Part shown: positions 20,269 through 21,977 of the stretch, piece after piece
How positions within the stretch are numbered: the stretch's first letter is position 1
Layout: each line of letters begins with the position of its first letter
DNA from: Escherichia coli
GTDB taxonomy: Bacteria; Pseudomonadota; Gammaproteobacteria; Enterobacterales; Enterobacteriaceae
Strand: one strand, 5' to 3'
Assembly (NCBI RefSeq): GCF_017348835.2
Contig: NZ_CP071375.1
DNA: 64,000 nt
Made by a program: the position numbers and the translations under genes
The notes under the pieces: model-generated
Told to the model about the DNA's origin: nothing
Databases searched by the model: none
What the model saw: the letters and a program-made list of their open reading frames with translations, nothing else

Positions 20269-21029
20269 TTATTTATATTTATGCAGAGATAAAGCCTGCG
20301 TCCCTGCATTTACCACCACGGAATACCTGTTGGTATTTCCGTTTTCACGCAATGTCATGGCATTCGTTTTTTCCAATGCATTTCCATCACCGTGAAATTT
20401 ATTGCTGCTCAGCAGCAGGGCTTCCCGCAATGACATGCTGTCCGGTATTCCCCAACGCTTTTTTAGCGATTGCTCGGCAAGCCATATCTGTCTTATCCCC
20501 GTTTTGAGAAACTGCGCACTGTATTCCCAGCTGTGTCCGGCAAGAAGCAACGACAACACCTTCTTTTGCTTTTCCGGGAAGCGTTCTGACATGACGATTG
20601 TCTTTGTGCGGTTATTCACCTCATTCATAAAGACAGAGTAACTGTCCATAACTGGCAAATTTTCTGCATGTTTCAGTCCTGAAAACCCACCAGAGGCATT
20701 TGCAACACTGATAGCACGCTCTACTGACATTCCTGGTTTCAGTAACCTCAGGTTTTTGAGAACGCCAGAAATACTCACATCCGGTGGCAGAAAAAGGGCG
20801 CGACGCACAACACCACCACGAATGAGTGATCCCGATAAAATCGGAACCACATTTCAGCGCATTCGGCAGGTCGCCCTGCCGATATCACGACACTCTGTGG
20901 CCTGTGCCGCAATTTATTGCGTAACTCCTCTTCTGTTCTGATGCAGGTAATATTGCAGACAGAACCGGTTGATAGAGCTGCGAACTGTGCAGGTACAATT
21001 CCTGAGGGACAGAAAAGAACGAAACGCAT
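20269..21029 (-). pseudogene. LuxR-type transcriptional regulator, frameshifted (N-terminal domain and HTH domain in different frames)
   Basis: ORF 20775..21029 resembles the N-terminus of the upstream LuxR gene; ORF 20269..20850 carries a degenerate LuxR HTH. Confidence 0.5.
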
Positions 21030-21182
21030 CCTTCCCTCACAGATGTCAATACGCCAGCACGCTGTACAGGCTGTACAGCGTGCCTCCCAATCCTGCAGCC
21101 CAGAGCAGTAGAAATATTTTGGCTCCTACACTGTAGCGAGTCCGTACGCGCCGCAGTGGGTGGTAGTAACAACGCTGCTGTG

Positions 21183-21977
21183 TCATAACACTCCTGGTCT
21201 TTTTTTAGACATATGTTTTCTTTGTCCGGAAAGCACTTTTCCGGATATGGCGTCAGAATTTATTGATTTACCAACAATAACTTTCTCTGGATAAAGAATT
21301 CCGGACACCATGTTCTGCACATACTGAGTGAGTCGATGAGCGGAATGTTGTCCGACATATCTTGCATGTAGCCGTATATTCCGTTTGACTCTGCTGTCAC
21401 CGCATCCCGTATAGAGCAGCCTGAAATCGCTTAGTGTTCCCAGTCCAAGTTTCCTTAATGCCTGTGTGGCAATCGCATGCAGAGTCTTTGAACTGCGTTG
21501 TTCATAACGGGCAATCTCACTGAAACTCATGCCCTGCATCAGAATCTTAAGCACGCTTAACTCCCGTGCAGTCAGGAGCCAGAAATCACTCATATCGCCG
21601 GGTAAAGGACGTAGTAACCAGCGGATAATTTGATTCTGATAACGACTCGCTTTCAGCAAGGTGCCGATATGTGGGAAGCCGTTATACAGACTTGAAGCAG
21701 GAGCATTATCGAACCAGTCGGAGTCACCGGTCAGGCAGACCTGCCATTGCCCGGCATCACTCCGCAAGCGGACAAGACAAGCCAGAAGAACTAACTCCCC
21801 CGAAGGAAGCGAAGGGATATCAGCCAACAGGTAGCCACAGGAGGTCTTTAAAACGAATTCAACCTCTGTAGTGACGTTGCTGTACACCCGCACGATATAC
21901 CTGTCCGCTGGGATGAGAGACTCCAGTGCCAGCCTGGTGAACTGACAGGCACTGATAATAACCAGAGGCTTCTTCAT
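21183..21977 (-). CDS. LuxR-family transcriptional regulator (HyxR-like / PdeL-N-terminus-like HTH)
   Basis: ORF 21183..21977; HTH LTARELSVLKILMQGMSFSEIARYEQRSSKTLHAIATQALRKLGL, close to the PdeL HTH in this window. Confidence 0.75.
   Translation of the reverse strand: MKKPLVIISACQFTRLALESLIPADRYIVRVYSNVTTEVEFVLKTSCGYLLADIPSLPSGELVLLACLVRLRSDAGQWQVCLTGDSDWFDNAPASSLYNGFPHIGTLLKASRYQNQIIRWLLRPLPGDMSDFWLLTARELSVLKILMQGMSFSEIARYEQRSSKTLHAIATQALRKLGLGTLSDFRLLYTGCGDSRVKRNIRLHARYVGQHSAHRLTQYVQNMVSGILYPEKVIVGKSINSDAISGKVLSGQRKHMSKKRPGVL

Follow-up and report, generated by a model that had tools for sequence, protein, structure and literature searches.

PAI-X of Escherichia coli is a small island that comprises the invertase gene fimX/ipbA, the invertible promoter hyxS, and the genes hyxR, hyxA and hyxB/upaB (Phan et al. 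2013, PMC3789825; Battaglioli et al. 2018, PMC6083910). The hyxS element carries 16-bp repeats, and its inversion, which is brought about only by FimX, controls hyxR (PMC6083910). Mutants of hyxA and hyxR show changed O-antigen chain length and serum resistance, and no functional prediction was offered for hyxA in the same study (Phan et al., PMC3789825). In a 2024 paper, hyxA and hyxR were called “putative transcriptional regulators” (PMC11294581). The same report described the Salmonella T1-antigen locus STM0716-STM0718, in which STM0718 is 39% identical to HyxA (PMC11294581).

Here, a 64,000-nucleotide stretch of E. coli DNA (RefSeq assembly GCF_017348835.2, contig NZ_CP071375.1), referred to as the window, was analysed following an earlier note that had described positions 20269-21977 as tandem LuxR-type regulators, the downstream one being split across two frames. 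The reading favoured by the analysis, with a probability of roughly 0.85, is that this segment is the hyxR-hyxA part of PAI-X, that hyxA was inactivated by the loss of one T from a run of six as an ordinary lineage mutation in a decaying island, and that intact HyxA is likely a divergent regulator.

Identity of the locus

The segment corresponds to the hyxR-hyxA portion of the published PAI-X island, located between betA and ykgH. The intact order, found in E. coli HS and M8, is betA ... ipbA(fimX/hbiF) - hyxR - hyxA - hyxB - ykgH - ykgG, and both the PAI-X site from betA to ykgH and the order fimX-hyxR-hyxA-hyxB are present in the window. A 2.2-kb region of the locus was matched in 1913 of the 5426 complete E. 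coli genomes. Across the locus, the window is 100% identical to strain PE164, isolated from a pig in China, in which the annotation names hyxR (LuxR family transcriptional regulator HyxR), hyxA (protein HyxA; frameshifted), the hyxB autotransporter/adhesin (frameshifted, partial) and a recombinase (frameshifted). The gene pair is already named and published, and the hyxA frameshift is already flagged by RefSeq in this identical genome. The features of the locus are as follows.

21183..21977, minus strand: hyxR, intact LuxR-family regulator of 264 aa (ORF; Pfam GerE; WP_001315275.1)
21046..21186, minus strand: conserved 46-aa small ORF, basic at its N-terminus and hydrophobic at its C-terminus (ORF and conservation across cassettes)
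20269..21029, minus strand: hyxA pseudogene, 761 nt, intact length 762 nt (alignment to HS hyxA; “frameshifted” in RefSeq for PE164 and F2_81)
20791..20795, minus strand: frameshift site, T5 on the coding strand (A5 on the plus strand), T6 in intact alleles (alignment)
22017..22293, no strand assigned: invertible promoter hyxS, between fimX and hyxR (bounded by perfect inverted repeats of 16 bp, TGATTCAAAATGTCAG, located at 22278-22293 and 22017-22032)
22306..22866, minus strand: fimX/ipbA/hbiF tyrosine invertase pseudogene (alignment; “frameshifted” in RefSeq)
19737..20227, minus strand: remnant of the hyxB/upaB autotransporter gene (G4 to G3 at ~19766; 1.84 kb deleted downstream of ~19737)
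19072..19605, minus strand: ykgH, its 3′ end truncated by an insertion sequence (blastn against HS ykgH)
17765..19074, minus strand: IS3-family element, 1310 bp in length, with a target duplication of 3 bp (orfA 18694..19020, orfB 17807..18694)

With PAI-X of extraintestinal pathogenic E. coli, the locus shares the chromosomal site, the gene order and the RefSeq accession of the HyxR protein, as well as the 16-bp inverted repeats of hyxS, whose natural inversion is seen across genomes. It differs in that fimX, hyxA and hyxB have become pseudogenes and an insertion sequence cuts ykgH, leaving only hyxR and the 46-aa ORF intact.

The hyxA frameshift and its nature

The hyxA gene appears in the window as two minus-strand ORFs in different frames, 20775..21029 (84 aa, starting MRFVLFCPSG) and 20269..20850 (193 aa). 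Both are colinear by alignment with the intact hyxA of HS (762 nt, 253 aa), and the sole indel relative to HS is the change of CCC-TTTTTT into CCC-TTTTT. The earlier suggestion that the two ORFs form one gene, with a frameshift between 20775 and 20850, is thus borne out by the loss of a single T, and the alignment places this indel exactly at the run that had been singled out, an A5 on the plus strand (20791-20795) followed by a G3 (20796-20798). After 80 native residues, the frameshifted product terminates with CHRM, and the 193-aa ORF is the remainder of HyxA in its own frame. The loss of one T would thus truncate the protein after residue 80, inside its N-terminal domain, which implies that the function of HyxA is lost in this lineage. 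The change is best read as an ordinary loss-of-function mutation that became fixed in a single pig-associated lineage.

The frequency of the allele was surveyed with an 81-nt probe spanning the run, which was matched in 1866 E. coli genomes. An exact T5 match was obtained in two of them, PE164 and F2_81. Among the matches listed, those ranking next are 98.8% identical and align 82 record bases with the 81-base query, a single gap as T6 gives, and by this pattern the gene is uninterrupted in about 1864 other genomes. Because of these uninterrupted copies, the two ORFs cannot be a chance pairing of unrelated reading frames.

The lesion lies in a homopolymer, as do three further indels of the island (T8 to T7, A7 to A6 and G4 to G3), a pattern that would be expected if the frameshift were a sequencing or assembly error and the real hyxA were intact. 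This explanation is considered very improbable. F2_81 is an independent isolate, from a pig rectal swab in Australia, and has in common with the window not only T5 but also the T8 to T7 change in fimX, the G4 to G3 change and the deletion in hyxB, and the insertion sequence. F2_81 lacks two indels found in the window and PE164, the AT deletion at ~22362 and the A7 to A6 change at ~22250; hence T5 is common to two independently sequenced isolates that differ at other indels. The occurrence of T5 in F2_81 together with the common lesions indicates inheritance within a lineage and makes a base-calling error very unlikely. In addition, a run of 5 or 6 nts is short for systematic error, and the 1.84-kb deletion, the 2-nt deletion outside a homopolymer and the insertion sequence in the island are not base-calling errors. 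Relative to HS, six gaps are present in the 3.1-kb island compared with only one in the neighbouring 3.1 kb of ykgG/ykgF, a difference more in keeping with relaxed selection on the island than with a noisy assembly.

A homopolymer at the junction of two frames, in a locus that is already phase-variable through hyxS, could also act as a regulatory device, either by slipped-strand phase variation or by programmed ribosomal or transcriptional slippage that would still yield full-length HyxA. This possibility is given almost no weight. The length of the tract, merely 5-6 nts, is essentially invariant in the 1866 genomes, so that the variation among strains which characterizes a contingency locus was not found. 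The zero-frame codons are CCC TTT TTC and form no slippery heptamer of the type X XXY YYZ; together with the rarity of T5, this argues against a site of phase variation or programmed frameshifting. The two-frame arrangement is not conserved either, since the E. coli alleles listed and all intact relatives, including the diverged ones, are in a single frame. Hence an ordinary mutation that disrupts hyxA remains the preferred reading.

Decay of the switch and of the remaining island

The hyxA lesion is one of several in the island, along with a dead fimX, a mostly deleted hyxB and a ykgH cut by an insertion sequence. In fimX, a T8 to T7 change at ~22526 and the 2-nt AT deletion at ~22362 were found. 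The latter destroys the codon of the catalytic Tyr (AGA TAC ACA becomes AG ACA), and the active-site region between the two deletions, which includes the HxxR box, is out of frame. The 127-aa ORF left at the N-terminus of fimX still matches the NCBIfam tyrosine-type DNA invertase. From these lesions, a functional FimX able to invert hyxS appears to be absent from this locus.

Each hyxS repeat lies within an imperfect palindrome of ~31 bp, as expected of a tyrosine-recombinase site with two half-sites. The element's ON and OFF states were reportedly defined by Bateman and Seed in a 2012 study of the PAI-X island. The predicted inverted junction of hyxS was fully matched in 18 of 1821 genomes, showing that the element inverts in nature and that the window carries the majority orientation. 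Since fimX is dead, hyxS is presumably locked in this orientation. The palindrome at 22001-22039 was also considered as a terminator, and it is better explained as a complete recombinase site, with both half-sites, at the repeat proximal to hyxR; the distal site is an imperfect copy of this palindrome.

About 490 nts of hyxB are left, and the 1.84-kb deletion fuses them to the region upstream of ykgH. The adjacent ORF at 19072..19605 had been a candidate for foreign DNA with a Wzz-like hint, and was identified by blastn as ykgH cut by the insertion sequence. The whole fimX-hyxRAB island is therefore decaying in a pig-associated lineage; the earlier note had recognised neither the island with its invertible promoter nor this decay.

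HyxR and the small ORF downstream of it

The hyxR product is WP_001315275.1 both in PE164 and in HS. Pfam GerE (PF00196) was found at residues 135-181 (E=4.1e-6). Over 55 residues, the helix-turn-helix (HTH) shares 44% identity (E=7e-8) with the one at the N-terminus of PdeL, encoded at 30737..31831 on the plus strand, in agreement with the resemblance to PdeL that had been noticed from the sequence. An unusual C-terminal extension of ~65 residues had been noticed as well, and a long tail is indeed present after the HTH (about residues 190-264, ~75 residues). The AlphaFold2 model of HyxR has an overall pLDDT of 42.7 and is confident at the HTH only, with values below 40 in the tail. Both the length (0 to ~70 residues) and the sequence of the tail beyond about residue 193 vary among HyxR relatives of 45-94% identity, and the extension looks like a poorly constrained tail.

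Between hyxR and hyxA lies the 46-aa ORF, which the published account of the island, with its four genes, does not include. The ORF begins with an ATG that overlaps the stop codon of hyxR (ATGA), and it ends 17 nts before hyxA. In some genomes it carries the annotation “hypothetical protein” and nothing more, and it is a member of no family. In a diverged cassette (L003), its counterpart has equal length and 61% identity, with 13, 11 and 24 substitutions at the first, second and third codon positions, and the other frames contain stops. The ORF also occurs at the same position in a second diverged cassette (L012), and just upstream of the HyxA homologue in a locus resembling the Salmonella T1 locus (L011).

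HyxA: sequence relationships and predicted fold

In sequence comparisons, HyxA could not be linked to LuxR-type proteins. Searches of Pfam with the 193-aa ORF, with intact HyxA and with the ten family members (HyxA and nine relatives) gave no match at E<=10; nothing relevant was found on HyxA in NCBIfam, and a profile search of PDB sequences with HyxA gave no match. The absence of a LuxR HTH from a domain search of the second gene was the outcome that the earlier note had named as counting against its own proposal, and formally the Pfam result is that outcome. The pairwise alignment of the two proteins, which had also been suggested as a check, fared no better: BLASTP of HyxR against HyxA gave only an out-of-register piece of 30 residues (E=0.1), and hhalign of the full HyxR and HyxA families gave a probability of 0.3%. 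When hhalign was run by domain, the probability was 1.7% for the HTH (E=0.029) and 0.8% for the N-terminal domains, so that the matching N-terminal domain proposed for the second gene is not supported. The HTH alignment, which is non-significant, is still in the expected register (RFPEKQKKVLSLLLAGHSWEYSAQ... against LLTARELSVLKILMQGMSFSEIAR...). Among other candidates, the “distant homologues” P0029-P0031 of a word-indexed search were frame-shifted translations of the same DNA, and P0081 of an exhaustive search was a false positive, a repeat protein.

The structure of HyxA was predicted with AlphaFold2 from an alignment of ten sequences that included diverged full-length relatives of 29-53% identity, collected by an exhaustive HMMER search. 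The model (pLDDT 76.6, pTM 0.71) shows a (beta-alpha)5 CheY-like receiver fold at residues 3-120, followed by a linker helix and four helices between residues 153 and 205. These C-terminal helices (153-163, 168-175, 179-193 and 201-205) have pLDDT values of 91-96, and residues 131-200 are at 93-96. Foldseek searches of the PDB with this model retrieved full-length FixJ, RcsB, StyR, VraR, spr1814 and DesR over ~205-225 columns (E=1e-5 to 1e-3), and in AFDB50 HyxA and its Salmonella homologues came first, followed by LuxR C-terminal-related regulators, response regulators and SprB. The TM-scores were low (0.3-0.47) because the orientation of the domains differs from that in solved structures. 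In LuxR-type domains, recognition is the role of the third helix. Within the HyxA family, conservation is highest in the block GxRQVWLxEQxLKxRW, located in the model helix 179-193, the third of the four C-terminal helices.

Alternatively, HyxA may not be a LuxR-type DNA-binding regulator at all, the predicted fold being an artefact of the modelling or a helical bundle that arose by convergence; the protein may then have another role such as the direct control of O-antigen chain length. The negative searches of Pfam, NCBIfam and PDB sequences and the hhalign probabilities of 0.3-1.7% are compatible with this alternative, as are the lack of a functional prediction by Phan et al., the LPS phenotype of the hyxA mutant and the label “transport protein” given to some UniProt homologues of HyxA. 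It is nevertheless judged unlikely. The confidence of the model across residues 131-200 is high, the hundreds of Foldseek matches are to regulators that combine a receiver (REC) domain and a LuxR HTH, with the top PDB matches all belonging to that one family, the hhalign alignment brings the HTH helices of HyxA and HyxR into the expected register in spite of its non-significance, and the conserved block coincides with the position of the LuxR recognition helix.

A LuxR-type regulator encoded by the second gene is thus at odds with every sequence test (Pfam, NCBIfam, PDB sequences and hhalign) and is suggested by the AlphaFold fold, receiver-like with a four-helix HTH. By the same token, the description of the locus as tandem LuxR-type regulators holds for two adjacent regulator-like genes and for the GerE domain of HyxR, and fails for HyxA at the level of sequence.

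If the predicted receiver fold is correct, it probably does not act by phosphorylation. When the CheY positions D12/D13 and D57 were mapped by eye using the family alignment and the strands of the model, they corresponded in HyxA to Cys-Pro and to a variable Ala. Strand beta1 ends in LFCPSG and beta3 reads VVISAGRP, the position after VIS being A, T, H, V, P, I or Y across the family, and by this mapping neither an acidic pocket nor a phospho-acceptor Asp at the end of beta3 was found in the HyxA family. By inspection, the Lys after beta5 is nearly invariant. The absence of the acidic pocket and of the phospho-acceptor Asp suggests that HyxA is a phosphorylation-independent pseudo-receiver regulator; no partner kinase is encoded near hyxA. 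Intact HyxA is hence most likely a phosphorylation-independent regulator of NarL/FixJ architecture with a very divergent LuxR-like HTH, both the fold and the DNA-binding role being read from a predicted structure. A receiver followed by a LuxR-like HTH would provide a testable mechanism for the effect of HyxA on O-antigen chain length and serum resistance.

Relatives of the hyxR-hyxA pair

Genes resembling hyxR and hyxA are paired in several diverged cassettes (L003, L012 and L009/L010). In L003, the HyxR-like gene and a HyxA-like gene (42% identity) are followed by the N-terminus of an autotransporter. L012 contains an invertase, a switch whose repeats are the same, a HyxR-like gene (65%), a HyxA-like gene (53%) and a long partial ORF of at least 462 aa that runs off the contig. 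In L009/L010, of plasmid-like context, a HyxR-like gene (56%) and a HyxA-like gene (42%) precede a CaiF/GrlA-type gene. A HyxA-like gene without HyxR is found in L011, a glycan locus of the Salmonella T1 type, after a FimX-like invertase, and another enterobacterial contig (L005) carries such a HyxA-like gene ahead of a gene whose protein has a hydrophobic, signal-like segment at its N-terminus. The gene context of these relatives is consistent with a regulator dedicated to the surface-structure genes next to it, and HyxA probably acts together with HyxR on such genes.

A broader proposal may be put forward tentatively, and is rated as somewhat doubtful. The HyxA family could represent an unrecognised, extremely divergent and non-phosphorylatable branch of receiver and LuxR-HTH proteins, which, with the conserved, putative small membrane peptide of ~46 aa encoded just upstream, would constitute a module placed behind FimX-type invertible promoters in PAI-X, in its variant cassettes and in the Salmonella T1 locus, and controlling autotransporters, the T1 glycan and O-antigen chain length.

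Comparison with known systems

In this locus, a small accessory island is seen to decay in an ordinary manner in a single pig-associated lineage of E. coli. Beyond PAI-X itself, three described systems resemble it in part. The NarL/FixJ regulators (FixJ 5xt2, RcsB 6eo3/5w43 and SprB) share with HyxA the architecture predicted for it, being its top structural matches, and HyxR possesses a bona fide GerE HTH as they do. HyxA differs from them in having no detectable sequence similarity and in that canonical phosphorylation is not expected.

The ipuS-ipuR-upaE locus of UPEC CFT073 is similar in that a switch operated by a tyrosine invertase drives a LuxR-type regulator and an autotransporter (PMC6083910). 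As described there, it occupies another locus, its repeats are 7 bp long, and a second gene of the HyxA type is not reported. Like PAI-X, the Salmonella T1-antigen locus has a FimX-like invertase, a switch that can invert and a homologue of HyxA upstream of surface-structure genes, and in the T1-like locus (L011) the same order includes a small hydrophobic ORF directly ahead of the gene for the HyxA homologue. It differs from PAI-X by lacking a HyxR homologue and by its downstream genes, which make a glycan (GLF, glycosyltransferases and an ABC transporter) instead of an autotransporter.

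The small ORF and the hyxS switch

The following features surround hyxR and the frameshifted hyxA pseudogene.

Features flanking hyxR and hyxA in the window
17765..19605: ykgH and IS region, ykgH being cut short by an IS insertion
19737..20227 (-): hyxB/upaB remnant, of which ~490 nt are left
21046..21186 (-): 46-aa ORF between hyxR and hyxA, protein MTQQRCYYHPLRRVRTRYSVGAKIFLLLWAAGLGGTLYSLYSVLAY
22017..22293: invertible promoter hyxS, bounded by perfect 16-bp inverted repeats
22306..22866 (-): fimX/ipbA invertase pseudogene with two deletions

The ATG of the 46-aa ORF overlaps the hyxR stop codon. 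The ORF is kept at the equivalent position in two diverged cassettes (L003 and L012), and in the Salmonella-T1-like locus L011 a counterpart lies immediately 5′ of the HyxA homologue. Its substitution pattern looks coding (13, 11 and 24 at the first, second and third codon positions, respectively), and its product looks like a small single-pass membrane peptide. In some genomes the only annotation it carries is "hypothetical protein", and it falls into no family.

The hyxR-proximal site of hyxS is a near-perfect 31-bp palindrome (22005-22035); at the distal site this palindrome recurs in imperfect form. The opposite orientation of the switch is found in 18 of 1821 E. coli genomes.

Decay of the flanking genes

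In fimX, a T8 run is shortened to T7 at ~22526 and a 2-nt deletion at ~22362 eliminates the catalytic Tyr codon. The pig isolate F2_81, of the same lineage, carries the first lesion without the second, so fimX decay within the lineage is stepwise. The hyxB/upaB remnant has suffered a G4 to G3 frameshift and a 1.84-kb deletion. The insertion truncating ykgH is a 1310-bp IS3-family element, IS629-like, with a 3-bp target duplication.

HyxR and HyxA homologues elsewhere

Salmonella HyxA homologues, matched in AFDB50 by the predicted HyxA model, are labelled "Transport protein" in UniProt. The predicted receiver plus HTH fold lends this label no support, and the label probably reflects misannotation.

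One database protein (P0007, from E. coli contigs outside the window) fuses HyxR residues 1-103 to HyxA residues 66-253, implying a deletion between hyxR and hyxA in some strain.

A related gene pair lies in plasmid-like surroundings.

L009 and L010, 5170-7207: HyxR-like/HyxA-like gene pair

Rep3 and ParA-like genes surround this pair, and a CaiF/GrlA-family regulator gene comes next after it; together, this setting suggests a mobile two-gene module that can couple to other regulators.
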